Notes under the pieces: generated by a model
The model's input: the letters and a program-made list of their open reading frames with translations, nothing else
The model's database searches: none
Told to the model about the DNA's origin: nothing
IMG/VR virus record: IMGVR_UViG_3300045391_006216
Span: 36,097-100,096 of that record
DNA: 64,000 nucleotides
From: a virus
Reading direction: 5' to 3' (one strand)
Shown here: positions 1,159 through 43,150 of the stretch, in pieces
Layout: each line of letters begins with the position of its first letter
How positions within the stretch are numbered: position 1 is the stretch's first letter
Made by a program: the position numbers and the translations under genes

Positions 1159-3580
1159 GTGGTACAGAATAGCCGATAATCGACCCTGCGGTGGCAACTT
1201 CGGATGGAAACTGATACCAACTAGGAAACCCTTGCAGGATTGCTGCTGCTTCGATAGTTAGAGACTTCACCATACCATTGGGCAGCCAGATATCGGCGAA
1301 CTTAGTACGGTTAGATCCTTTATCGTCAGTGAACTGCGATCGCACTATAGTATTACAAGGTAAATGTCCTGGTTTATATTTGGGTTTTTTACTACGAATT
1401 CCAGTACGCTGGATGAGTAGTGGTTGGGGTGAATTAGAAATTAAAAATTCATCAACCACTTTTTGCTGACTGGTCAGTAGTTTGGAGTCGGGCATAGTGT
1501 AGATGAGATGAGCAATTGCTTCATACCATCCAACTTGTTTATCTGATGGTGGGGGTAGTGGGATGTGAAAACCTTTTCCTGCCGTAAGTATCAGGCGTTT
1601 ACGCGATTGGGGTAGTCCATAGTCTGCAAAGTTGATAATTTCGTAGTTGATTAAATATCCAGCAGATTTTAGGGAATCGAGAATGCTATCAAAGCTTTGA
1701 CTTTCTACATAACCAGGAACATTCTCTAAGGTAAATATATTGGGAAGTAGTTCTTTGATTGATTTAGCTACTGCTTGTGCTGCCGATATATCTTCATTAG
1801 TTTCACCTCGTTGTCCTGCTTTTGCCGTGTGGGATTGGCTAAATCTCGAACAAACTGAAGAATCGTGCAAGTAATCTGGATATAAAGGAAAGTCGATAAA
1901 ACCAGACTCAGCAACTTGTTGAACCGTTTGCTGTATAACTTTGCAGTCCGGGAAATTTTGACGATGAACTTTTGTCATCGCACTGCTGAGTTTTGGTTTA
2001 GTCGGGTCGTGTTCCACTGCAATGGCTGGACGAATACCAGCTTCTACCATACCGGCTTCAATACCACCACCACCAGCAAACAGGATGACGGCACTAGGAG
2101 CGCTCTTTGGTAATGAGTTAGGAGTAATGGGTAATGAGTTAGAGGCTTTTTGTTGCTTGGCCCTAACAATGAAATTAACAATTTCTTCTCGACTAACTTT
2201 TTGAAACTGCATTGTGCGGATTTGAGCGATCGCAGTTATAGGTATAGACCCAATACTCCTGCCCTTCCAAGCACCGTTACGTTTCTCCTTCCAGTTAAAG
2301 CCCCAACGCCAATGGCTAGGGTTATTGGAGTCGCGCTCTCCAACAACACGAGGATAAGTGACCATAGATCCGTCATGAAGTTTTTTAGACTCCACATATT
2401 GATATAGACATCCAACCGATTCGCTTTGATAATCCTCAATAGGTTTATCTATTGATTGTGTTTCTAGTTCATGCGTCTCTCCATTTTTTTGTTTTAATTG
2501 ATTAATTACGCCATTTTTTTGAGCCTGCACGCTGTACCAAAACTCAAATTGTTTATTCAAAGACAGATTCAAGGCCGAATAGCATCCCTGTTGTTGTTCC
2601 TCAATATTTCTGTTCCCATCGCTCCAAACTGCTTTACAATACCTACTAGCAAGTTTCATCGCATAATTCGCATCCAAGCTAATCACGTTCATCTGAAAAT
2701 ACGCTAAAGCTTGTTTTTTAGGAGATCCGCCCAATAGATGAACAGGGCGTTCTCCAAACCACCTTGGATTAAGAGGCGTCGATCCATATGTAGAATCAAC
2801 GCTGTAACCAAGCCAGTATTTTTCGGGTATGTCAACATCGCATTTAGGTATTATTAAAACCCTTCCTGAATATTGTGCTAGTTCTTCCGCTTGTCTTAAA
2901 ATTTCTGGCAATAATTCAGGGCTAGTTACGTCTAACGCCGTTGCAATCAAAGGTTTATTATTTTTCACCATCTCAAGATGTTGATGGTGTTTATAATTTT
3001 TATAATCATTATCGACCATCATCATGTGGCAATAGTATTTATTTTTACCACTACTGTTGATGCCTAAATTCCATCCAACCTGAAAAGCAATCGCATCGTA
3101 TTTACTTTTTCCACCACCTCCGCAGTAAAACAATAAAGGCAGTTTGATGGAATATCGCCAGTGATTAATGAGGCTTTTCCTGCCTAGTTGTACAGTTTCT
3201 AATTCAAAACCGAGTTTTTGATAAAAATTATTAGCAGATAACTTCTCAGGACATTTGAGAAAAACACTAGTTTTACCTTCTTCAATAGCTCTACAAATTA
3301 CACGATAAATCAAAAGCCGTCCCCATCCTTGGTTTTGATATTGGGATAAAACAGCCAGTTTTCGGATAGTTACTTGCTCATCTTTTCTAATGTGGTAATA
3401 ACACGCTCCTATTCCTTCAATTACCTCTATTTGAGATTCTGATAGTTCAATCGATGATGTGAATCCCCCTAACTCATTCCTAAAGCTGTTAAAAATAATT
3501 TGAGCCTTTGATATTTCAGAACTGATATTTTCGCTTAATTTTAAGACTTCTTCGGTTTTCTCTAAGAATTTATTGGGCAT
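1091..3580 (-). CDS. fusion protein: GNAT acetyltransferase + DUF6610/TGT-like barrel + DNA (cytosine-5) methyltransferase
   Basis: GNAT motif QYQNQGWGRLL...ANNFYQKLGF; middle domain VHLLGGSP/SLDAN; C5-MTase motifs LFAGGGG (I), SVC in place of PC (IV), ENV (VI), QSRKR (VIII), LQGFP and IGYSVPP (X). Confidence 0.75.
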   Translation of the reverse strand: MPNKFLEKTEEVLKLSENISSEISKAQIIFNSFRNELGGFTSSIELSESQIEVIEGIGACYYHIRKDEQVTIRKLAVLSQYQNQGWGRLLIYRVICRAIEEGKTSVFLKCPEKLSANNFYQKLGFELETVQLGRKSLINHWRYSIKLPLLFYCGGGGKSKYDAIAFQVGWNLGINSSGKNKYYCHMMMVDNDYKNYKHHQHLEMVKNNKPLIATALDVTSPELLPEILRQAEELAQYSGRVLIIPKCDVDIPEKYWLGYSVDSTYGSTPLNPRWFGERPVHLLGGSPKKQALAYFQMNVISLDANYAMKLASRYCKAVWSDGNRNIEEQQQGCYSALNLSLNKQFEFWYSVQAQKNGVINQLKQKNGETHELETQSIDKPIEDYQSESVGCLYQYVESKKLHDGSMVTYPRVVGERDSNNPSHWRWGFNWKEKRNGAWKGRSIGSIPITAIAQIRTMQFQKVSREEIVNFIVRAKQQKASNSLPITPNSLPKSAPSAVILFAGGGGIEAGMVEAGIRPAIAVEHDPTKPKLSSAMTKVHRQNFPDCKVIQQTVQQVAESGFIDFPLYPDYLHDSSVCSRFSQSHTAKAGQRGETNEDISAAQAVAKSIKELLPNIFTLENVPGYVESQSFDSILDSLKSAGYLINYEIINFADYGLPQSRKRLILTAGKGFHIPLPPPSDKQVGWYEAIAHLIYTMPDSKLLTSQQKVVDEFLISNSPQPLLIQRTGIRSKKPKYKPGHLPCNTIVRSQFTDDKGSNRTKFADIWLPNGMVKSLTIEAAAILQGFPSWYQFPSEVATAGSIIGYSVPPSFAKLLFAHCQQVVASKLQVA

Positions 3581-3628
3581 AACAAATAGTTCTTTCTTTG
3601 GTAGCTATAAGTATTAGATTGGGCATTT

Positions 3629-4201
3629 TTATACATGTTTACTTTGACGCATCGATATTTTTCTAGCCAAGTCTTTGATTTGTGCTTTTGTTTCTTCTGG
3701 CATTGGTACAAATTCTTCTTGCCGCTCTGGTTTTCGTGGTGATGCAGATGCGGACGGTAAAAAATGAGAATCTTTATCAGAACACTGGCAATAAATTGTG
3801 GTGAAATTTTTTTCCATTTTTTCACGCAGTCTTTCCTCCGCCAAGCTGACCGCGTTTAACCCGCCAATTGCGTTTAGGGCTACTTTACCCCTGGCGGACA
3901 AATAAGCGATCGCTTCTTTCCTCCCAGATGCAGCTGATAGGACATCTTGCCATTCCCTGATTGCTTGTGCCTCTTTGCCACCATTGACAAAAGCAACAAG
4001 CTCTTTAGGAGTCGGCATAAAGCTGGGATGAGGCCTACATTGGATAATGGCTTGCTTGACGGATTGAGTCAATTCATCATCGGTCAAATTATCGCTAAGA
4101 TATTCCTGCCAAATAGCTAACGCGCTTTCGGGCTGGATTTGCTTGCTGAAATAAGTTTGCAGCACAGCGATCGCTTTTTCAAATTTTTCTTGGGTAATCA
4201 T
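3629..4201 (-). CDS. phage replication accessory protein (helicase loader/inhibitor-like, G39P/DUF6475-type)
   Basis: Directly downstream of the initiator; 'WQEYL..LTDDEL...FMPTPKEL' pattern typical of these proteins. Confidence 0.55.
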   Translation of the reverse strand: MITQEKFEKAIAVLQTYFSKQIQPESALAIWQEYLSDNLTDDELTQSVKQAIIQCRPHPSFMPTPKELVAFVNGGKEAQAIREWQDVLSAASGRKEAIAYLSARGKVALNAIGGLNAVSLAEERLREKMEKNFTTIYCQCSDKDSHFLPSASASPRKPERQEEFVPMPEETKAQIKDLARKISMRQSKHV

Positions 4202-5331
4202 AGTTCAAATTTTTTGCTACTGGCGCGCCTAATCCGTTCTAGTTCCGATTCTTCACTGATTTGCTGTAAAACCTGCTTGCCGCTTGTGCCATTCGATGAC
4301 ATCTCTGCCATGCGGACATAGTCCATAAGCTGATTGAAATCCTTGAGTGCATTGACACAGTTTGCATTTCTGATGCCCCTTTCCAAAGAATTGAGGCGAT
4401 CTTTGATTTTTTTTAAATTCGTGGTTCCATCCCCAAGCGAATACCACTCAGGATTTGCCGCGAAAACGGCTTTACAGACCTCTGGACTAAATTCCGTGGC
4501 ATTTATCCTCCAAGGAGCAATTGAAGGGTTGTAAGACAATTTTTGGGCTTGTTTTAAAATTTCGTACTCTTGTTCAGAGAGCGACCAATTTACCATCGCT
4601 GTCTCGTTTTCCACAGCAACCAAATTTTTACCTTGGGAGGTAGGAGGGTCTTCTTCTTTGTTTGTATTCTTTGTATTTTCTTTGTATATGAATGTAGATG
4701 ACCTTTGGGCAGTTACGTAACTGCCCAAAGGTAAGTTACAGGGTTCCCAAAGGTCATCTACTGTAGATGACCTTTGGGCAGTTACGGTAGATGACCTTTG
4801 GGCAGTTACAGTAGATTCCCTTTGGGCAGTTACGGTAGATTCCTTGCTAGTTGGACGTTTACTAGCTTTTGGCTCGTCTATTTTGATTAACTGCTCAATC
4901 AAATCATCGACTTTATCATGGTTGCGGAAGTACCAAGTCAGCCCTTTTTGTTTGTCATGATAGCTACAGTAATATTTCTCTTCCCCTTGCTCGTTGATGA
5001 AAGGGTTATCAGCTTGAAGGTAAGCAGTTTTGGAGCTATGCCTAACTCCCAATTGATCGAAGGCTGCTCTGAATTCCTTTTCACTAAAAGCTAATTCTTC
5101 AACCCAGCTATCACCTTCTCGATAATCTGGATGCCCTGGCGTAGGCGCGAGGAATTTATATATTCCATCAGGATAATCGGCAAAATGAAAATCCAATTGC
5201 TGAATTAAAATAGTTGCGGCAATGCTGCCGACGTGTTTTCGCAGAGATTTTCTATAAGGAATACCCTCCCTTATATCTGCTAAATATTTGTATTTCATGC
5301 CCATGACTTTGCCTCTTGTAAATTTGAGCAA
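4198..5331 (-). CDS. phage replication initiator (lambda O/DnaD-like architecture)
   Basis: N-terminal wHTH-like domain, central repeat linker (STVTAQRS)n followed by ENTKNTNKE; iterons inside the gene. Confidence 0.7.
   Translation of the reverse strand: MLKFTRGKVMGMKYKYLADIREGIPYRKSLRKHVGSIAATILIQQLDFHFADYPDGIYKFLAPTPGHPDYREGDSWVEELAFSEKEFRAAFDQLGVRHSSKTAYLQADNPFINEQGEEKYYCSYHDKQKGLTWYFRNHDKVDDLIEQLIKIDEPKASKRPTSKESTVTAQRESTVTAQRSSTVTAQRSSTVDDLWEPCNLPLGSYVTAQRSSTFIYKENTKNTNKEEDPPTSQGKNLVAVENETAMVNWSLSEQEYEILKQAQKLSYNPSIAPWRINATEFSPEVCKAVFAANPEWYSLGDGTTNLKKIKDRLNSLERGIRNANCVNALKDFNQLMDYVRMAEMSSNGTSGKQVLQQISEESELERIRRASSKKFEL
4694..4841. repeat. iteron array and palindromes, putative replication origin
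   Basis: 24-bp unit GTAGATGACCTTTGGGCAGTTAC(G/A) at 4694, 4763, 4787, 4811 (last copy has 2 changes); perfect 32-bp palindrome 4701-4732; 16-bp inverted arms 4746-4778. Confidence 0.8.
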
Positions 5332-6166: not shown

Positions 6167-7867
6167 TTAAATTAAGCGCAACTCGTTTTTAAAATACCTC
6201 CTGGGGCGCTTTTCTTCATCGTGGTTCCAAATCACCATAACTTCATCAGATGAAATCTCCTCTACCACTAGCCCTTCTCTAAGGTAGAGTTCGCTGTAGA
6301 TATCGCTGGAGGCGACTGTTTTATCTAATTTGATGGGAGATGAAAGTTGGGTTTCGTGGTTGTGTTTGATTGTCCTGATGAAGTCTTTTTCAGAACTGTC
6401 CAATTTTGTCCAATACAGTTCTTTTACTTCTTGGTACTTCTCGGCTACTGACCAAAACTGTTCCCAAGTGCATTTTGTTGATATGATTGCGCGGATATCT
6501 TCAATCGCTTTTTCAATCATTATCCTTTGAGCGATCGCACTTTTGGTAGCCTCACATCCCAAGAGAATTGCCGCTGCTTCCAATGCCTGGGTATTATTGA
6601 TGGCTTGGGCTAAGTTCCCCAAAGCCAATCCCATCAATTGCAGGCACAGTACGGCATCTTTGGGAGGTTCAACGGCCAACTGTCTTAAATCAATGGTGTT
6701 TGTCAACGCTTCCTTCACCTCTTGATTCAAGACTTTAGCTGCTGCTTTCGGAATTGGGTTTGCCCATTCCATAGGTTTTTGGGCAACAAGCTTTTCTAGC
6801 TCTGCGTTCCGAGCCTGGAGACGCTGATTTTCTTCCTCCAAAAGCCTCAGTGCCTCTAATTGTTGTATTTTTTGTTGGAGTTTGCTGTTCTCCGTTTTCA
6901 TCTGCTGCACAAGGTTCCTGGAGGCTTGCAGCTGTTCTTGTAGTTGACGGGCGGCCAACTCCTCAATTTCTACTTTCCGCCCAATCAAGGCCTCTTCTAT
7001 GCATTTGGTGAGTTCTTCTTCTGTGTAGGTTTTGGCAGTAACAGGTTGTGGATACGGGACGCTACCACTATCTAAGTCTAAGTCCGCGATCGCAACCAAT
7101 TCACTCGGACAATCTGCAAAAGCAACGAACACATGCGTCATGTTTGCTTGACCAGTGATTGTGCCTTCTTGCCCATGCCGAATATGTAATTGTGATGAAA
7201 CCTTGACTTTTGCTACATAAGAATCAGGGTTTGATGGTTGTTCATGTCCAGTGGTGGACATGAAGGAGCTAGAATCCTGATTATTAGGTTCTACAAAGGA
7301 ATCAGGGTTTGATGGTTGTTCATGTCCACTACTGGACATGAAGGAGCTAGAATCCTGATTCTTCCGTTCAAGAATCTTTCCTTTGCGGGTATGCTTTCTC
7401 CTTTGAAAAAGAAGTATTTTTCCCTCCTTCTCTAATTCCTTCCTGGCTTCCCCAACAGTCGTTGGGCTACATTCGAGAATTCGGCTAATTTCCCTATCGC
7501 TCCACTCCACAAAAGAAGCATTTTGCAGTAAAAATTGCACAGATTCGCGCTTGTTGGGTATTTTGTGTGCTTCGATTACCTCTAGTGCAAGCGATCGCAC
7601 ATTAGTAGCCGTGACGGAGGAAAGCAGCATACCTAACCTGATGGAAGCCCTTGGCGTCCATCCGTTCGCTACTTCTTGTTGAAACTCTTGCCAATGGGCT
7701 TGCAGGAGTTCTGAAATTATGTCTGTGCTTACGCCGTAATATTCGGCGACTTTTTCAGTGGATACTGCACCTTTGGGATTATGCCAGATTGCGGAAAATA
7801 AGCATTCTGCCTTGGTGAGGATTGAATAAGATGCGGTTTCGTTGAAACTATCTGGTAATGTATTCAT
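6167..7867 (-). CDS. antirepressor-like N-terminal domain + HTH + coiled-coil protein
   Basis: VAEYYGV...RASIRLGMLL antirepressor-like motif; WSDREISRILECSPTTVGEAR HTH; long coiled coil. Confidence 0.55.
   Translation of the reverse strand: MNTLPDSFNETASYSILTKAECLFSAIWHNPKGAVSTEKVAEYYGVSTDIISELLQAHWQEFQQEVANGWTPRASIRLGMLLSSVTATNVRSLALEVIEAHKIPNKRESVQFLLQNASFVEWSDREISRILECSPTTVGEARKELEKEGKILLFQRRKHTRKGKILERKNQDSSSFMSSSGHEQPSNPDSFVEPNNQDSSSFMSTTGHEQPSNPDSYVAKVKVSSQLHIRHGQEGTITGQANMTHVFVAFADCPSELVAIADLDLDSGSVPYPQPVTAKTYTEEELTKCIEEALIGRKVEIEELAARQLQEQLQASRNLVQQMKTENSKLQQKIQQLEALRLLEEENQRLQARNAELEKLVAQKPMEWANPIPKAAAKVLNQEVKEALTNTIDLRQLAVEPPKDAVLCLQLMGLALGNLAQAINNTQALEAAAILLGCEATKSAIAQRIMIEKAIEDIRAIISTKCTWEQFWSVAEKYQEVKELYWTKLDSSEKDFIRTIKHNHETQLSSPIKLDKTVASSDIYSELYLREGLVVEEISSDEVMVIWNHDEEKRPRRYFKNELRLI
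7221..7360. repeat. two 62-bp self-complementary direct repeats inside the CDS
   Basis: Copies at 7221-7282 and 7299-7360; each has AATCAGG...TTCATGTCCA-N4-TGGACATGAA...CCTGATT. Confidence 0.85.
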
Positions 7868-19634: not shown

Positions 19635-20334
19635 AGGTTTATTCTGAGGGGAAAGATTTTACTTCGTCGGGTTTAACTTGATATTTTAGTGTTTTAATTG
19701 TAGATGCGAATACTGCGATTGTGTTTCAGAACTAAGCTATTTTCATAGTAAAATGATTATAATGCGACAAGCCTCTGCTGAACACAAATACACTTTAAAT
19801 CTCATACTCTAATTAGTTGGGAATCTCAAATTAAAGAAATAGAAGTGATTGCAAGTAGTGATGCTTCATGAGGCATCATTGTGGATTATTTTTCTTGCAA
19901 ATAAGCTTCTTCCTCGTCACACCATTTTTTCAACTCTTCGAGTATTCGCTGTTTAACTCCGCCAGATTTTTCACTTTCTGCTATTCCTCTGCGAATAACT
20001 AAAATTACTTCCTCTAAATCTTCCTCTGGTACGCTTAAAATCTCATTTGCCATTTATTAAACTCCTAAATTACTATCTTTCTTCACCGGACACCAATTGA
20101 TAGAGCCGATATCTTCATATTATCCTTTTCTGGTTCGTAAACTTTATAGTCTTCACCATCCTCGTTCAATTCTGGCAGCTTTTAGCCCATTTTTTCAATT
20201 GTTTAACCGTTGTGTTGTGATTTTCCCATTTGATTACTCCAGTTTAAAATCTGTAATTCGGGTAGATAGCATTTTTGGTGGTTAATTGTGTAGTTAATCT
20301 TTATAATAGGCTAGCATTGATAGTCACTATTAAC

Positions 20335-21879
20335 ATGAAATTATCTTCTTTACGTAGATCACTTGATAGAGGTAAAAAAGAAGAGCGAGGGGTTTCCACT
20401 GTAGAAAAATTAGAGAAGTTGTGGAAACCCCAAGAGGGGCCGCAGACTCAGGCTTATTATCATCAGGCAGATGAACTCCTGTATGGAGGAATTTTTTTAT
20501 TTATAAATAGATAAATCAGGTATCGAGGAGCGGCAGGAGGTGGAAAAAGCGCGTTACTTTTAATTCTTGGTACTACTGCCCAAAAACGAGCCATCATTTT
20601 TAGACGCGAATATCCCCGGTTAAAAGACTTAATTGAAAAAGCCCGAAGTTTACTTGCGGGAATTGCCAGATATAACAGCAACGATAAAATCTGGCGTGGC
20701 ATTCCAGGCGATCGCACTTTAGAATTTGGTGCAGTACAACACGAACAAAGCGTGGAGGCGTACCGGGGAGTAGAACATGACGGTAAATTCTTCGATGAAT
20801 TGGGCGAATTTACCAGAAAACAATATGAATTCCTGATTACCTGGAATCGTTCATCTGACCCATCAGTTAAATGTCGGGTCGTGGCCACTTGCAACCCTCC
20901 CAGTGAAGAATCCGCAATGTGGATTAAAGAGTACTGGGCAGCATGGCTCGACCCCAATCACCCAAACCCAGCTGCTCCAGGCGAAATCAGATGGTACGCC
21001 ATGATAGATGGTGAGGAGAAAGAATTAGAGTCGGGCGAACCATTTGAACACGATGGGGAAATGATTCAACCGCGATCGCGCACCTTTATCCCATCCCGAC
21101 TAGAAGATAACGCTTATCTAAGAAACTCGAATTATCGCTCAGTACTGCAAAGATTACCAGAACCACTGCGATCGCAGTTATTGAGAGGTGATTTTGGTAC
21201 GGTTGCAAAGGTAGACCATCCTTGGCAAGTCATACCGAGCGCTTGGGTGGATGCCGCTGTTAAACGCTGGACGCCCGTACCCAATGCCCCGCAATCTCAT
21301 TTGGGCGTAGACGTAGCTAGGGGAGGACGAGATGAGAGCATAATCATCTCTCGGCATCACTACTGGATAGCTCCAATTATTGCTTTGGCAGGTAAAGAAA
21401 CGCCAGATGGCGATTCGTTAGCCGACCAGATAGTGGTAGCAAGGAAGTCAGCAAAAGTTGAAATTAGGGTGGATACGTTGAATGTTGGGTATGCGGTAGT
21501 GGACGCCCTAAATCGCCGGGGAACAAAATTGGTGTTTGGGTTGAATGGGGGAGGGTCTACAGATGCTTTAGATAAAAGTGGATTGTTGAAGTTTTTTAAT
21601 TTGCGATCGCGCTGGTGGTGGCATCTAAGGGAACTCCTCGACCCCGCCAATGGGTATAATGTAGCGCTGCCCAACGACCCAAAACTAATTGCCGACCTCA
21701 CTGCCCCCAGATGGAGTCGTACCGGGTCTAGGAATAAGTTTGGTGAGATTCGGGTGGAGAGTAAAGAAGATATTATTAGAAGACTTGGGCGCAGTCCCGA
21801 CAGAGGCGACGCTCTCGCTTATAGTTTCGCAGAAGATGTGGACGATGCTAGCAGTTATGATTGGTTGAATCAGTTGTGA
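20335..21879 (+). pseudogene. terL: phage terminase large subunit interrupted by a 39-bp in-frame insert carrying a stop
   Basis: WKPQEGPQ Q-motif; Walker A YGG|AAGGGKS split by the insert; Walker B FFDELGEF; NPP; RNase H-like LGVDVARGGRD and SPDRGDA. Confidence 0.85.
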
Positions 21880-22928: not shown

Positions 22929-23332
22929 AATTTTGGACATATCTTATGAATTGGGTGAATTTTGAAGAAATAGACATCAAGACTGGCGACATTTTAGAAT
23001 GCCCCGCAAATCGCTATGTATTTGTCATTACAGTAGATAGCGAGTTAATTCAAATGCTTTCTTATGTTCCAGAAAATAACTTTGGATACAACTTATTTAT
23101 TGAATCTCTTGCTTTCCCAATTTTATGGGAAAACTATAGGATACTAGCAGGCGAAGAAAAAAATGAGATTACACGTAACATTTTATCTGCGATTTGTTAC
23201 AAGCGTAATTTATTATCTGCCGATATGGAATTGTACAAAAACTTGAATGAAGTTGTTGCCATATCTAATACTCTAGATAATTATAAAAATAGAAAAATTC
23301 AATTAGAAGCAACTCGCAATAATCTCATATGA
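22910..23332 (+). CDS. hypothetical protein
   Basis: ORF in operon. Confidence 0.45.
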   Translation: MGNSRLKFWTYLMNWVNFEEIDIKTGDILECPANRYVFVITVDSELIQMLSYVPENNFGYNLFIESLAFPILWENYRILAGEEKNEITRNILSAICYKRNLLSADMELYKNLNEVVAISNTLDNYKNRKIQLEATRNNLI

Positions 23333-23625
23333 ACTATTTATGGATAATAACATTTACATTTGCTTTTTGTGCAATGCTTTTCTTGTCACATAAAATTGAA
23401 AAACAACTACTCGCACTCAAGCACAAGCAATGCCAAAACTATACTTATAAAGTAGTAAATGAAAATTCTTATTTAATTACACCTTGTCCCGCTAATTATG
23501 TAATTCTTGAGAATTTATCAAATGTAGTTTGGGTAGCACGCGATAGTGATAATTTGCTGATTAAAGCTGAAAGTCGTCAAGCTATCGAAGATTTAATAAT
23601 TGCACTTAATAGTACTTATTTTTAA
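23329..23625 (+). CDS. small membrane-anchored protein
   Basis: N-terminal hydrophobic helix. Confidence 0.45.
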   Translation: MNYLWIITFTFAFCAMLFLSHKIEKQLLALKHKQCQNYTYKVVNENSYLITPCPANYVILENLSNVVWVARDSDNLLIKAESRQAIEDLIIALNSTYF

Positions 23626-23823
23626 TATGCTAGAACTACGAGACAGAGTTAGGATTAATCAGTTAGATCAGAAAAAATTCAGCCATCAAATTGCTGCCTA
23701 CGGCATTAGTGAAGGAGTAGTAGAAGGGCTGCATGATTTTATAATTTCGGTTGCTTTTGAGACTACTCAAGGAAAAATACATAGAAAGGATATTCAGCGT
23801 ATGTATTTAGAGAAACTATAAAA

Positions 23824-33734: not shown

Positions 33735-34484
33735 TTACCTTAAATCCGGCGAATAATACTCTTCAATTTCCGCAGTCAAATGCCAAACAATTTGTTTTGC
33801 TTGCAAGTATAGCAATTCTTGGTAGGTACATTGTAAACGAGTATGGGGGTAAGTGATGCGTTCGTTCATTTTCTTTTCAAATGAATTTACGATTGCTCGG
33901 ACTGCGATCGCGCTTAAGTTCTTATCTTGCCAGCATTTATCAAAATCTTTAGGAAGTACCTACCCTTTATTTAATACCCTAATTACAACTGCATCGCAAA
34001 GAACTTTAAATTCTGACGCTAAATCCTTCACTAGTCCTTCTTGAGTTTTGTAGGATTCGTGCCAATAACCTTGTGCGGGATTCAAACCAGCAGCATAAAT
34101 CGCAGTTTTGGCGAATTCTTCTAGCAATTGATAGGTGAAATTCAGCATCCGGTTAAATGGGAGATTATTGTTGCGCCCAACAAATTGCCAATCATTGTTT
34201 AAAGTCAAAGGTAATGCTCTGTAGTAAATTTGCATTCCTGCTCCCAGCAATCCTTGAAGCGAAGATACCGAATTTTGTTGGTAAACAGCGCCGATAATTG
34301 TTTGTAGGTCTTCGCAAGCTTGCTCGACGGGAGATTGGTTTTCCCTTGACTTTCTCAATAAAAAACGCCGATATCGGCGCAAGATGCCCCAAATAGTACA
34401 TCTAGACTCTATGTTTTGGCTAGCACCAACATAAACCTTTCCATCTAGTTTATTCGTGATTAAGTATATGCCTTTTGTTGCCAT
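33735..34484 (-). pseudogene. cas1: chimera of a GIY-YIG N-terminal fragment and a degenerate Cas1 helical domain, with one premature TAG
   Basis: GIYLIT...VYVGAS.NI..R, then SLQGLLGAG..YY, F.GRN, N.ML.F.Y, GLNP..GYWH, DLASEF..L.DAVV; past the TAG at 33960 the frame continues ...YPHTRLQCTYQELLYLQAK...YSPDLR*. Confidence 0.7.
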
Positions 34485-41997: not shown

Positions 41998-42346
41998 TTA
42001 CTTAAAAAATTTGAATGATTTTGTTTACAGAAAGTTTTTTCTAAAACCCAATTATTCAACTGCTAAACAAATTAAAAGAATAATTGAATTAAATAGCAAC
42101 ACTAAATTTTCAGACTTCGCTAAATTGAAGTCTGGATATGATAGATTTTCGGATTTAACTTTAGCCAACCTACAAAAAATCTCTCCATCTGAAATATCTA
42201 ATACTGTGAAAGCTTACATGTACGATGAATATTGGCAAGCCAAAGCTTTGAGATGGTATTTACGAGGATTGCCAATTAATTTGGCAATCAAAAAAATTTT
42301 GGTAGATCAAGAAATTTCTTTGAATGCAATGTCAAAAAATAAATAA
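41990..42346 (+). CDS. hypothetical protein
   Basis: ALRWYLRGL motif; operonic. Confidence 0.5.
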   Translation: MINYLKNLNDFVYRKFFLKPNYSTAKQIKRIIELNSNTKFSDFAKLKSGYDRFSDLTLANLQKISPSEISNTVKAYMYDEYWQAKALRWYLRGLPINLAIKKILVDQEISLNAMSKNK

Positions 42347-42978
42347 TGCACCCATCAAGATTTACAGAACTTGCTGGGTTCCCTGAACGCTGGCAAGAAA
42401 AACACTTACAACAGTATTTGGCTGAGCGTCTCCAAGAACAAGGTTACGGAGTCAAGCTAGAAGTCGGCGCAAACGGTGGTCGGGCCGATATCGTTAGCAA
42501 TTGGATGAATGGGGCGATTATTGAGGTTAAAAAATATCTTGACCGCAATACAATTTATCAATCTGTCGGGCAATTAAATCTTTATGGCTTAGGAAATAAA
42601 CGTAAGTTAGTAGTAATGGGTTTTCTAACTCCCGAAGCTAAGGAGCAAAAATCAGCTTTCTCTACCGCTTCGATGGTTCAACAAGATCCCCGTGTAAAGG
42701 TCGTATTTGTTAACCTTGAAAAAGAATGGCAACCGGGATATAAAGCAGCTAATTCTTGGATGAAGTTACAAATCTCTATACTGCCCAAACTTCAAGTTTT
42801 TTCATTTTCGCTTCCGCAATTACCTAAAATCAAATTGCAGTGGTTCTTTGAATTAGTGAAATCCCATCCTGTGTTATTTGCGCTAGCAATTGTGCTGTTG
42901 CTCAGTGCGCTACCAAAACCACAACACAATAATCAGTTCAAACAAAACGGAATTGTCAACCATATTTTTTATGTATAG
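42346..42978 (+). CDS. PD-(D/E)XK nuclease-like protein with C-terminal TM helix
   Basis: EKHLQ..L...GRADIV...IIEVK...GQL..Y. Confidence 0.6.
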   Translation: MHPSRFTELAGFPERWQEKHLQQYLAERLQEQGYGVKLEVGANGGRADIVSNWMNGAIIEVKKYLDRNTIYQSVGQLNLYGLGNKRKLVVMGFLTPEAKEQKSAFSTASMVQQDPRVKVVFVNLEKEWQPGYKAANSWMKLQISILPKLQVFSFSLPQLPKIKLQWFFELVKSHPVLFALAIVLLLSALPKPQHNNQFKQNGIVNHIFYV

Positions 42979-43150
42979 TAGCGAGCGCAACATATTGCCC
43001 GTTGAATTAATTTCTGAGCCAGAGTTAGAAGTGGAAAAATCCTATGCAGATTTAGAATTTGAGGGTGACAAACAGGACAATAATCAAAGCGATGGGCTAG
43101 AAAACTCTGTTTACAATTTGAATGAACTTCTTGATTCTGTATGAAAAATA

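Follow-up and report, generated by a model that had tools for sequence, protein, structure and literature searches.

To our knowledge, long-range programmed translational bypassing is firmly established in two systems only, T4 gene 60 with its homologues and the mitochondria of one yeast. T4 gene 60 contains a 50-nt coding gap that comes with a MobA homing-endonuclease cassette, and gene 60 cassettes often lose the endonuclease yet retain the gap, with GIY-YIG enzymes replacing MobA in some of them (bioRxiv 10.1101/2022.08.31.505936). In the mitochondria of Magnusiomyces capitatus, as summarised in the same preprint, diverse inserts of 27–55 nt (byps) interrupt essential genes and are skipped by the ribosome between matched codons (bioRxiv 10.1101/2022.08.31.505936). 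A further case concerns the terminase of Streptomyces phage Hau3, whose gene is disrupted in frame by two inserts of 10 nt, each beginning with UUA, and for which regulatory bypassing was proposed but not proven (PMC10732093).

Elements of another kind occur in the P-loop of the large terminase (TerL): we found a LAGLIDADG intein in gp059 of Aphanizomenon phage vB_AphaS-CL131 and another in locus L033. In T-even phages, free-standing homing endonucleases of the GIY-YIG type (the Seg family) spare the genomes that host them, which are protected via target-site polymorphism.

Results

A stop-containing insert in the TerL gene

The window analysed here, a stretch of 64,000 nt, belongs to a 100-kb record estimated to be 83% complete. 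The portal, capsid and protease genes are intact in this record, which is that of a real phage. TerL (20335–21879, plus strand, like all features below) is the one large terminase gene that can be recognised in this Nostoc-type phage; a search for a second terminase matching PF03237 or PF03354 in the ~83% complete record found none, with models that are weak even on this TerL. In agreement with the original prediction, the gene is split by a 39-nt stop-containing insert between matched GGA codons, with a single in-frame stop interrupting 20335–21879. The N-terminal coding piece (20335–20490; 52 codons, MKLSSLRRSL...ADELLYGG), whose start codon at 20335 was assigned from homology to L002, L007 and L008, ends with the proposed take-off codon GGA (20488–20490). 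It is followed by the A/T-rich coding gap (20491–20529; G+C 26%) and by the C-terminal coding piece (20530–21879; 449 codons plus stop), which encodes the remainder of Walker A (AAGGGKS), the ATPase and the nuclease. The order at the junction is TAT GGA GGA (20482–20490), the insert, and then GCG GCA GGA GGT GGA AAA AGC. Reading the sequence, the sole in-frame stop of the TerL frame is TAA at 20512–20514, where termination would give 59 residues, 52 of TerL and 7 encoded by the insert; the other two frames are also shut within the insert (TAA 20504–20506, TAG 20508–20510). Excising 20491–20529 in silico restores TerL as had been predicted, with 52 + 449 = 501 codons against 500 aa in the uninterrupted relative L007, which is without the insert, and the junction yields the family consensus YGGAAGGGKS. 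With the annotated TerL of Aphanizomenon phage CL131 it shares 59% identity, with BPP-1-type terminases ~40%, and its Pfam Terminase_6N match is weak. The runs with the TerL region consist of low-depth soil-metagenome DNA contigs, none of which spans the insert, and one independent contig (run X3, 20320–20516) agrees with the 5' insert junction. Neither an RNA run nor a form with the insert deleted is listed among them, which at this depth carries no weight either way.

The insert is bounded, again as predicted, by a GAGGA repeat, with copies at 20486–20490 and 20525–20529, and this repeat makes a placement of the insert at 20486–20524 equally valid. The exact repeat is the tail of a longer degenerate 15-nt direct repeat, with an upstream copy CTCCTGTATGGAGGA at 20476–20490 and a second copy ATCAGGTATCGAGGA at 20515–20529 (11/15 identical, final 5 nt exact). 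Because of the direct repeat, the downstream piece alone holds a full Walker A motif (G-AAGG-GKS, codons 20527–20550), preceded by a beta-strand-like IRYRG. The notion of a split Walker A motif therefore needs qualification: the insert does sever the first 52 residues, ending in the beta-strand ELLYGG, but the motif itself is whole downstream. The insert is present once in the 100-kb record, and no further stop-containing gaps were found in the window's phage or in the complete relative genome. All that came up in this comparison was a pair of frameshifts that differ between the two and a MITE-like insert, in frame and free of stops; the frameshifts show that the record contains some decay or assembly error.

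Short inserts recur at the Walker A site

In a survey of 389 Nostocaceae genomes together with virus and metagenome collections, 7 of the 10 TerL loci in this family carried a short insert, all within three codons of one another in the Walker A motif. Six different insert sequences occur in Nostocaceae phages and prophages, namely of 18 nt (L099), 21 nt (L002/L006 and L086, in two variants), 39 nt (the window), 42 nt (L102), 66 nt (L103/L105) and 76 nt (L008). Nostoc linckia z4 has the 21-nt allele on a complete genome of 119 kb. The L008 insert is out of frame and has several stops, and that of L102 has two. Five of the six lengths are divisible by 3, a rule that bypassing does not need. Uninterrupted alleles exist in sister lineages (L007 beside L008, L100 beside L099), and in about 80 relatives from other phyla YGGxxGGGK[ST] is unbroken, interrupted only by inteins. 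Aligning TerL homologues thus bears out recurrence at this site, but not of the window's own 39-nt allele, which was seen in no other lineage surveyed. The 76-nt and 21-nt inserts have no second copy in their 8–9 Mb host assemblies. For interrupted TerL loci, protein databases hold N-truncated fragments only; further candidate relatives, seen as protein only, are P0004 (87% identical, called at 320 aa) and P0026 from Pelatocladus (N-truncated). In the literature searched, we found no description of gaps like these at the Walker A site of TerL.

There are several likenesses to the described systems. As in gene 60, an essential phage gene carries a short stop-containing insert at a strongly conserved point, with matched GGA codons, although the gene here is TerL rather than a topoisomerase gene and we saw no sequence resemblance to the gene 60 cassette. 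As in Hau3, short non-coding blocks are found at conserved junctions of a TerL gene whose flanks are contiguous in relatives, and several of our inserts carry UUA among their first three codons. UUA is rare and developmentally regulated in Streptomyces, whereas it is the commonest Leu codon in the phage studied here, so that a UUA trigger of the Hau3 type cannot apply; our inserts also exceed those of Hau3 in length, include stops and show a link to an endonuclease. The byps are likewise diverse short inserts in essential genes with matched codons. They are, however, multicopy, GC-cluster-like mobile elements in many genes and rely on an unassigned A-site codon, in contrast to a single-copy, A/T-rich insert at one site of one gene. 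The TerL P-loop inteins share the protein family and the motif (after GGGK), and are also an endonuclease-driven element that must be removed for ATPase activity. Inteins are translated and spliced as protein, whereas the inserts here comprise 6–25 codons with stops and so cannot be inteins; self-splicing introns were rejected along with them, given inserts of 18–76 nt with in-frame stops.

Link to a GIY-YIG homing endonuclease

Directly upstream of TerL, five of the seven interrupted loci have a gene for a GIY-YIG endonuclease (Pfam PF01541/PF22945), as against none of the three uninterrupted ones (p ~0.08, hand-computed hypergeometric tail, for loci that are phylogenetically related). L002, L008 and L103 have an intact copy of it and L086 and L099 a decayed one, and neither an endonuclease gene nor a remnant was found upstream of the window TerL. 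A neighbouring free-standing homing endonuclease that is progressively lost while the gap stays is also seen at gene 60; unlike there, the endonuclease ORF does not split TerL as well. The arrangement further resembles the Seg family in that a GIY-YIG gene, equipped with HTH modules for DNA binding, sits between genes, beside its presumed target. Protection in the Seg family normally involves silent substitutions, as opposed to a frame-interrupting insert, and cleavage of the P-loop by the present enzyme is putative.

The mobile-element origin raised in the original prediction gains support from this link, but in the form of a free-standing homing endonuclease and not of a transposon or of an excision element of the heterocyst type. 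No recombinase, no dispersed insert copies and no allele with the insert excised were found. A dispersed small mobile repeat or MITE of Nostoc was rejected as well, the insert being single-copy in the phage record, as are the 76-nt and 21-nt ones in their host assemblies.

Selection on interrupted genes

Purifying selection acts on insert-bearing TerL genes both before and after the gap. The dN/dS ratio is 0.11 between L002 and L086, which share an insert, and 0.04 (dN 0.05, dS 1.33) between L102 and L103, whose inserts are homologous; for the N-terminal piece of the latter pair pN/pS is 0.16. In the window, the C-terminal piece has a dN/dS of 0.03–0.05 against relatives. The private branch of the window allele carries 46 synonymous and 29 nonsynonymous changes (omega ~0.19, compared with 0.14 for the uninterrupted L007). 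The N-terminal peptide is as conserved in uninterrupted relatives as in interrupted ones.

One insert is itself conserved. Between L102 and L103, 39 of 42 aligned insert positions (93%) are identical, as against 54–70% of the flanking third codon positions. The two genes read the conserved block in frames that differ, so that it is a constrained non-coding element, and both insert ends (GUUUUA... and ...ACCCCUACUAAC) are conserved together with the internal block, whatever the frame.

Candidate signals for bypassing

The proposed landing codon, GGA at 20527–20529, matches the take-off codon. Six nt 5' of it lies AGG (20518–20520), a mini Shine-Dalgarno-like triplet with A/U-rich flanks and, by its sequence, a candidate signal; the A/U-rich gap and the position of the triplet recall gene 60, where (A)GAG(A) is the counterpart. 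L002 has GGGGGA 7 nt ahead of its landing GGT, and no such element is present in L099, L102 and L103. Matched codons that rebuild the consensus P-loop are GGA in the window, GGT in L002/L086 and L099, and AGT in L008. They are absent in L102 and L103 (GGC ... AAC|GGG), the pair for which evidence of function is best, and thus one mechanism of tRNA re-pairing cannot explain every allele. Flanking repeats of 4–7 nt accompany four independent alleles (we estimate the chance of a repeat of at least 4 nt at ~0.016 per insert, assuming uniform bases), and L102/L103 have 2 nt only. The other alleles also share with the window a common layout of target, A/T-rich core starting TTTTA and degenerate target copy. 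No splice-like boundary rule common to all six alleles was found in our comparison.

The imperfect inverted repeat noticed earlier corresponds to an 8-bp A/U hairpin (20496–20515), present in both the MFE and the centroid structure, with the stop in its 3' arm. It begins 5 nt past the take-off codon, but is weak, and the region folds no better than shuffles (region z = -0.8; z of the folds, -0.8 to +0.3). A CUCC/GGAG hairpin was also found and is inherent to the LLYGG codons. No significant RNA structure was detected in the inserts folded, except a 6-bp hairpin common to L102 and L103, in which the insert 3' end pairs with downstream GGGGGU codons, and no intrinsic terminator was found at the insert T-run.

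In the window, the take-off GGA is followed by AUU, the Ile codon that the phage uses most (37 per 1000). There is no stop or slow codon directly after take-off. The stop comes 7 codons downstream; that it is not adjacent, as the original prediction had cautioned, is a real weakness of the analogy with gene 60. The present case also departs from gene 60 in having no significant take-off stem-loop among the structures found and no known nascent-peptide signal, in gaps of 18–76 nt that differ among close relatives, in two alleles without matched codons, and in that bypassing is proposed here from sequence.

Simpler routes of expression

ARAGORN found no tRNA genes in the window, in the whole record (100 kb, ~83% complete) or in its complete relative of 119 kb, and a suppressor tRNA was ruled out on this finding for the record and the relative. 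Frameshifting was rejected since all three frames are stopped inside the insert. As to restart, a start codon follows the stop in L102 only, and none does so in the window, L002, L099, L103 or L008. A short hop that sets off at the codon preceding the stop is feasible in the window (AGA to AGG) and in L008 (UUU to UUU, 49 nt), but impossible in L002, L099, L102 and L103, and was discarded as a general route.

Discussion

Relatives with other inserts at the same spot keep TerL under selection, and the insert is therefore probably skipped during expression. On the sequence evidence, we see about an even chance that the window insert is an endonuclease-linked coding gap that is skipped in expression, most likely by a ribosome hop from GGA to GGA. 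Homing-endonuclease traffic would have put short stop-containing inserts into the Walker A codons of TerL genes in Nostocaceae cyanophages, and these would abolish the endonuclease target site, much as the 50-nt gap of gene 60 guards T4 against MobA. A working terminase would then need the gap to be neutralised in expression, for which translational bypassing appears the likeliest route. Peptidyl-tRNA-Gly would depart from GGA 20488–20490, the ribosome would slide across 39 nt, and after re-pairing at GGA 20527–20529 translation would continue at GCG, giving ...ELLYGG-AAGGGKS..., a protein of 501 aa. The joined protein is predicted to carry the junction peptide ...ELLYGGAAGGGK. Target-site protection and the ribosome hop are both steps that we infer. 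The original prediction had left the choice between programmed removal and a dead scar; the comparative data favour removal, albeit with the window allele in no second lineage, and nothing in our analysis supports a regulatory switch for packaging.

The strongest competitor holds that the window allele is a dead scar: the P-loop was cut in a resident prophage, by a homing endonuclease or another break, and sealed by error-prone microhomology repair with A/T-rich filler and a degenerate flank copy, so that TerL is inactive and decay is pending. This would fit alleles that all differ, each at a slightly different codon, and that all contain stops; it would fit the microhomology and the degenerate duplicate of the upstream 9–15 nt, which resemble templated-insertion repair, as well as the inconsistent bypass signals. 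The window allele, moreover, is unique and adjoins no endonuclease gene, and two frameshifts separate its record from the complete relative. What makes a dead scar unlikely, if still credible, is the L102/L103 insert, which has been kept through a dS of 1.33 at a dN/dS of 0.04 with no further lesion and is more conserved than silent sites. The dN/dS of 0.11 for L002/L086 and the omega of the window branch, similar to that of an intact relative, point the same way, as do the complete L002 genome (119 kb, with terminal repeats) and the intact structural genes of the window phage; a TerL-killing cassette, finally, could not spread among phages by homing. The same L102/L103 pair is an argument for removal at the mRNA level, in which host or phage enzymes would excise and re-ligate a tiny intervening sequence, matched codons being unnecessary: the pair lacks them, yet conserves insert ends and internal block independently of frame and forms the hairpin between insert 3' end and GGGGGU codons. 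The inserts also all start (G)UUUUA and finish in a similar SSUAY-containing stretch. Nevertheless, we know of no bacterial splicing mechanism for inserts of 18–76 nt, which are too short for ribozymes, the six alleles share no boundary rule, and no such gap occurs elsewhere in the phage or the complete relative, making this route rather improbable.

Restoration at the DNA level, by replication slippage between the direct repeats, aided in the window by the A/T hairpin, that deletes the insert precisely in a few genome copies and supplies terminase in trans, would account for the exact 4–7 nt repeats of four alleles, the small palindrome between the window repeats and the uninterrupted sister lineages (terminase does act in trans). 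It leaves the conservation of insert sequence without explanation, however; slippage at a 5-bp repeat is expected to be very low for an essential late gene, the repeat of L102/L103 is only 2 nt, and degeneracy of the longer repeats lowers slippage further, so that we hold it very improbable. Read-through of the stop or restart after it, with a protein that works with extra residues or as two chains, seems to us hardly probable at all. The divisibility of most insert lengths by 3, the complete Walker A motif after IRYRG in the downstream piece and the TAA-ATG that closes the L102 insert could be taken in its favour, but no tRNA genes were found in the record or the complete relative, L102 has two stops and L008 is out of frame with several. 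L002/L086 would by read-through gain six residues inside the P-loop, the L102/L103 block is conserved in different frames, and post-stop start codons are lacking in all alleles named above except L102.

Beyond the window allele, L102 and L103 lack matched codons while gene and insert are strongly conserved, which points to skipping that is free of matched codons. That Nostocaceae phages in general neutralise 18–76-nt inserts with neither matched codons nor an adjacent stop is nonetheless distinctly unlikely in our estimate. This could take the form of a new bacterial mRNA excision and re-ligation, or of sliding guided by conserved ends (GUUUUA ... CCCCUACUAAC paired to downstream GGGGG).

Gapped genes of this kind are miscalled as pseudogenes or truncated ORFs, which distorts calls of phage completeness and viability. 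The TerL loci offer natural, non-homologous gaps of varied length and sequence, all at a single site of one essential gene, some of them with and others without matched codons, with uninterrupted sisters as controls, and hence a ready-made mutational series for finding out what skipping of RNA requires of the ribosome or of another machine. For the phages themselves, they support a general rule whereby homing endonucleases that target indispensable motifs can immunise their carriers by inserts only if expression is able to ignore these inserts.

A stop-containing insert interrupts the terminase gene of the window

The large terminase (TerL) frame of the window (20335-21879, plus strand) contains a sole internal stop, a TAA at 20512-14, within a 39-nt insert (20491-20529) that is 26% G+C and stopped in all three frames. 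The insert follows TAT GGA GGA and precedes GCG GCA GGA GGT GGA AAA AGC; its removal gives a product of 52 + 449 = 501 aa that carries the consensus of the family, ...ELLYGGAAGGGKS. The predicted stop-containing insert between GGA codons was thus borne out as first read. The prediction also had the Walker A motif (P-loop) split; the insert does sit at its codons, but the motif is complete in the downstream piece because of the flanking repeat, and it is the N-terminal 52 residues and the β-strand preceding Walker A that are separated. That repeat, an exact GAGGA on both sides of the insert (20486-90 and 20525-29), is the tail of a degenerate 15-nt repeat (20476-90 versus 20515-29, 11/15 identical). 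An inverted repeat, likewise predicted, is present as an 8-bp A/U hairpin within the insert (20496-20515), but it is weak and the region folds no better than shuffles. The insert is present in a single copy in the 100-kb record, and its 5' junction is also seen in one low-depth metagenome contig of independent origin.

The protein shares 59% identity with the annotated TerL of the closest cultured phage, Aphanizomenon phage vB_AphaS-CL131 (112.8 kb), and approximately 40% with terminases of the PaV-LD and BPP-1 types; its match to Pfam Terminase_6N is weak. The record (100,096 bases, an IMG/VR virus estimated to be 83% complete) encodes a portal fusion, major head protein, head protease and sigma factor, all of them intact, while PF03237 and PF03354, models that are weak here, detected no other terminase in it. 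Elsewhere in the window, a 174-aa ORF (33960-34484, minus strand) carries a GIY-YIG N-terminal fragment of 26 residues fused to the C-terminal two thirds of a Cas1 domain (PF01867, E 2.9e-29), and has the appearance of a phage-borne gene fragment derived from Cas1.

Inserts recur at the same site, often beside a homing endonuclease gene

We gathered related loci from collections of viruses, genomes and metagenomes, and searched 389 Nostocaceae genomes. Inserts recur: among 10 distinct Nostocaceae TerL loci of the window's family, the Walker A codons are interrupted in seven. Besides the window (GGA ... GGA), matched GGT codons flank a 21-nt insert in Nostoc linckia z4 (L002, identical to L006; a complete 119-kb record with terminal repeats), the same insert with two changes in a metagenome contig (L086), and an 18-nt insert in Nostocaceae genome G309 (L099). 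A MAG of Nostoc sp. NMS7 (L008) has a 76-nt, out-of-frame insert between AGT codons, with the 7-bp repeat TGGTAGT. Matched codons are lacking (GGC ... AAC then GGG) at the 42-nt insert in the chromosome of Nostocaceae genome G095 (L102) and at the 66-nt insert, with the same ends, of genome G094 and an IMG/VR contig (L103, identical to L105). Every insert starts with (G)TTTTA, contains in-frame stops and closes with an imperfect repeat of the 9-15 nt upstream. As a set they are A/T-rich and weakly structured, and even closely related loci carry different ones. In the 8-9-Mb assemblies of their hosts, the 76-nt and the 21-nt insert are each present once. Three loci (L007, L100, L101) are uninterrupted. 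For two further close relatives, P0004 (320 aa, 87% identical, on an ENA contig of 117,732 b) and P0026 (Pelatocladus sp., 438 aa), gene calling gave only ORFs truncated at the N-terminus, which may conceal additional interrupted TerL genes.

Directly upstream of TerL, a GIY-YIG endonuclease gene (PF01541/PF22945, HTH modules) is intact in L002, L008 and L103, whereas in L086 and L099 it survives only in decayed form; none was detectable in the window or L102. The three uninterrupted loci all lack it, and there TerL directly adjoins a small-terminase-like gene. The association (5/7 interrupted versus 0/3 uninterrupted loci) is suggestive only. In T4, the 50-nt gap of gene 60 guards against nicking by MobA; in the mobA/gene 60 cassette the gap often outlives the endonuclease, and GIY-YIG enzymes can take the place of MobA (bioRxiv 10.1101/2022.08.31.505936). 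The TerL loci resemble this cassette in having a GIY-YIG gene beside the interrupted gene, in places decayed or undetectable while the insert persists.

The interrupted genes are under purifying selection

Downstream of the insert, we compared 445 codons by the Nei-Gojobori method in pairs with a common insert, and found purifying selection both for L002/L086 (dN 0.025, dS 0.22, ratio 0.11) and for L102/L103 (dN 0.052, dS 1.33, ratio 0.04). The L102/L103 piece upstream of the gap is constrained too (pN/pS 0.16), and none of the seven interrupted genes has further lesions. These patterns argue strongly that such genes would make functional protein. On the window's own branch we counted 46 synonymous changes private to it, against 29 nonsynonymous ones (omega approximately 0.19, compared with 0.14 for the uninterrupted L007), but the case for expression is weaker for this unique allele because the age of its insert is not established.

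The inserts of L102 and L103 are identical at 39/42 aligned positions, compared with 54-70% of third codon positions in the flanks and 80% of the downstream 300 nt, and their conserved block ATATTTGTCA is in different reading frames in the two loci; they are therefore a constrained non-coding element rather than decaying filler. A recent conversion tract is not the source, since the N-terminal codons between endonuclease and insert have diverged. Between L002 and L086, TerL divergence is mosaic (0 to 30 differences per 100 nt over 2300-4500), with only two differences in the 200 nt around the gap, both inside the 21-nt insert, a pattern that suggests recombination tracts and a relaxed insert interior.

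How the insert may be skipped

The original prediction offered either a programmed switch, by bypassing or excision, or the scar of a mobile element. It is partly supported: we favor a skipped coding gap, with the mechanism of expression as a proposal. The window allele may instead be a dead scar of break repair. Target, filler and degenerate target copy resemble microhomology-mediated templated repair of a break, by which the inserts may well arise and which accounts for their diversity and stops; however, the long-lived, conserved L102/L103 and L002/L086 alleles do not fit a dead scar, and a homing cassette must travel in viable phages. Several other routes are excluded or unlikely: transposon-like mobility because the inserts are single-copy, an intein or ribozyme because of their shortness, frameshifting because every frame is closed, and translation restart because only in L102 does a start codon come after the stop. 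The same applies to read-through, given the out-of-frame insert of L008, the two stops of L102 and the six residues that the L002 P-loop would gain. No suppressor tRNA was found in the window record (approximately 83% complete) or the complete 119-kb relative.

For the skipped gap of the window, the most likely route is a candidate translational bypass, in which the ribosome would hop from GGA to GGA; overall, we consider its chances roughly balanced. Matched codons also fit this route in L002/L086, L099 and L008. An AGG lies 6 nt ahead of the landing codon in an A/U-rich context, a sequence-level likeness to the (A)GAG(A) element described for gene 60 (bioRxiv 10.1101/2022.08.31.505936). The take-off codon is followed by neither a stop nor a rare codon (AUU is the commonest Ile codon), and no RNA fold was significant. 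Bypassing as the sole route is contradicted by L102 and L103, without matched codons. RNA-level excision, ranked lower for the window, would account for these two loci and for the conserved insert ends, and there the 3' end ACCCCU pairs with a downstream GGGGGU, but it is without precedent and we found no boundary rule common to all alleles. Also ranked lower is occasional exact loss of the insert from the DNA by deletion between the repeats, the terminase then being provided in trans; this route does not work for L102/L103 and leaves the insert conservation unexplained. The conserved 6-bp hairpin of L102/L103 (ACCCCU-ACUAAC-GGGGGU) comprises the insert 3' end and the next two codons, joining an anti-SD-like insert end to SD-like Gly codons where translation would resume.

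A site-specific phenomenon

Comparison of all ORFs of the window record with the complete relative G390 revealed no other stop-containing gap. In contrast to the byps of Magnusiomyces mitochondria, the phenomenon is thus confined to one site. Two genes that G390 encodes as undivided ORFs (243 and 273 aa) are each split by a frameshift in the window record, at approximately 23323-23815 and 42319-43141; these two differences could be real decay, programmed frameshifts or low-coverage metagenome assembly errors. G390 also carries a MITE-like element of approximately 207 nt (L194:4663-4872) that bears terminal inverted repeats (AGAAGGCAGAGGGCAG...) and lies close to the C-terminal end of a conserved protein of 566 aa, homologous to window ORF 6167-7867 (minus strand). 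The element is in frame and stop-free, and translation apparently runs through it, in contrast to the TerL inserts. In the literature searched, the only terminase case was Streptomyces phage Hau3, with two 10-nt UUA-led inserts and a proposed bypass (PMC10732093); we found no account of stop-containing gaps in TerL Walker A.

In approximately 80 relatives from other phyla the motif YGGxxGGGK[ST] is unbroken, except by true inteins. The CL131 TerL (gp059, L104:1552-4359, 936 aa) has a Hint + LAGLIDADG intein right after GGGK, ending ...THN|S, and a Lysobacterales MAG (L033, from approximately 1917 onward) has one at the same place. The window insert is best read as a coding gap tied to a homing endonuclease and passed over during expression. 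Inserts and inteins thus meet at one motif, which makes the P-loop codons of this TerL family a hotspot for elements driven by endonucleases.
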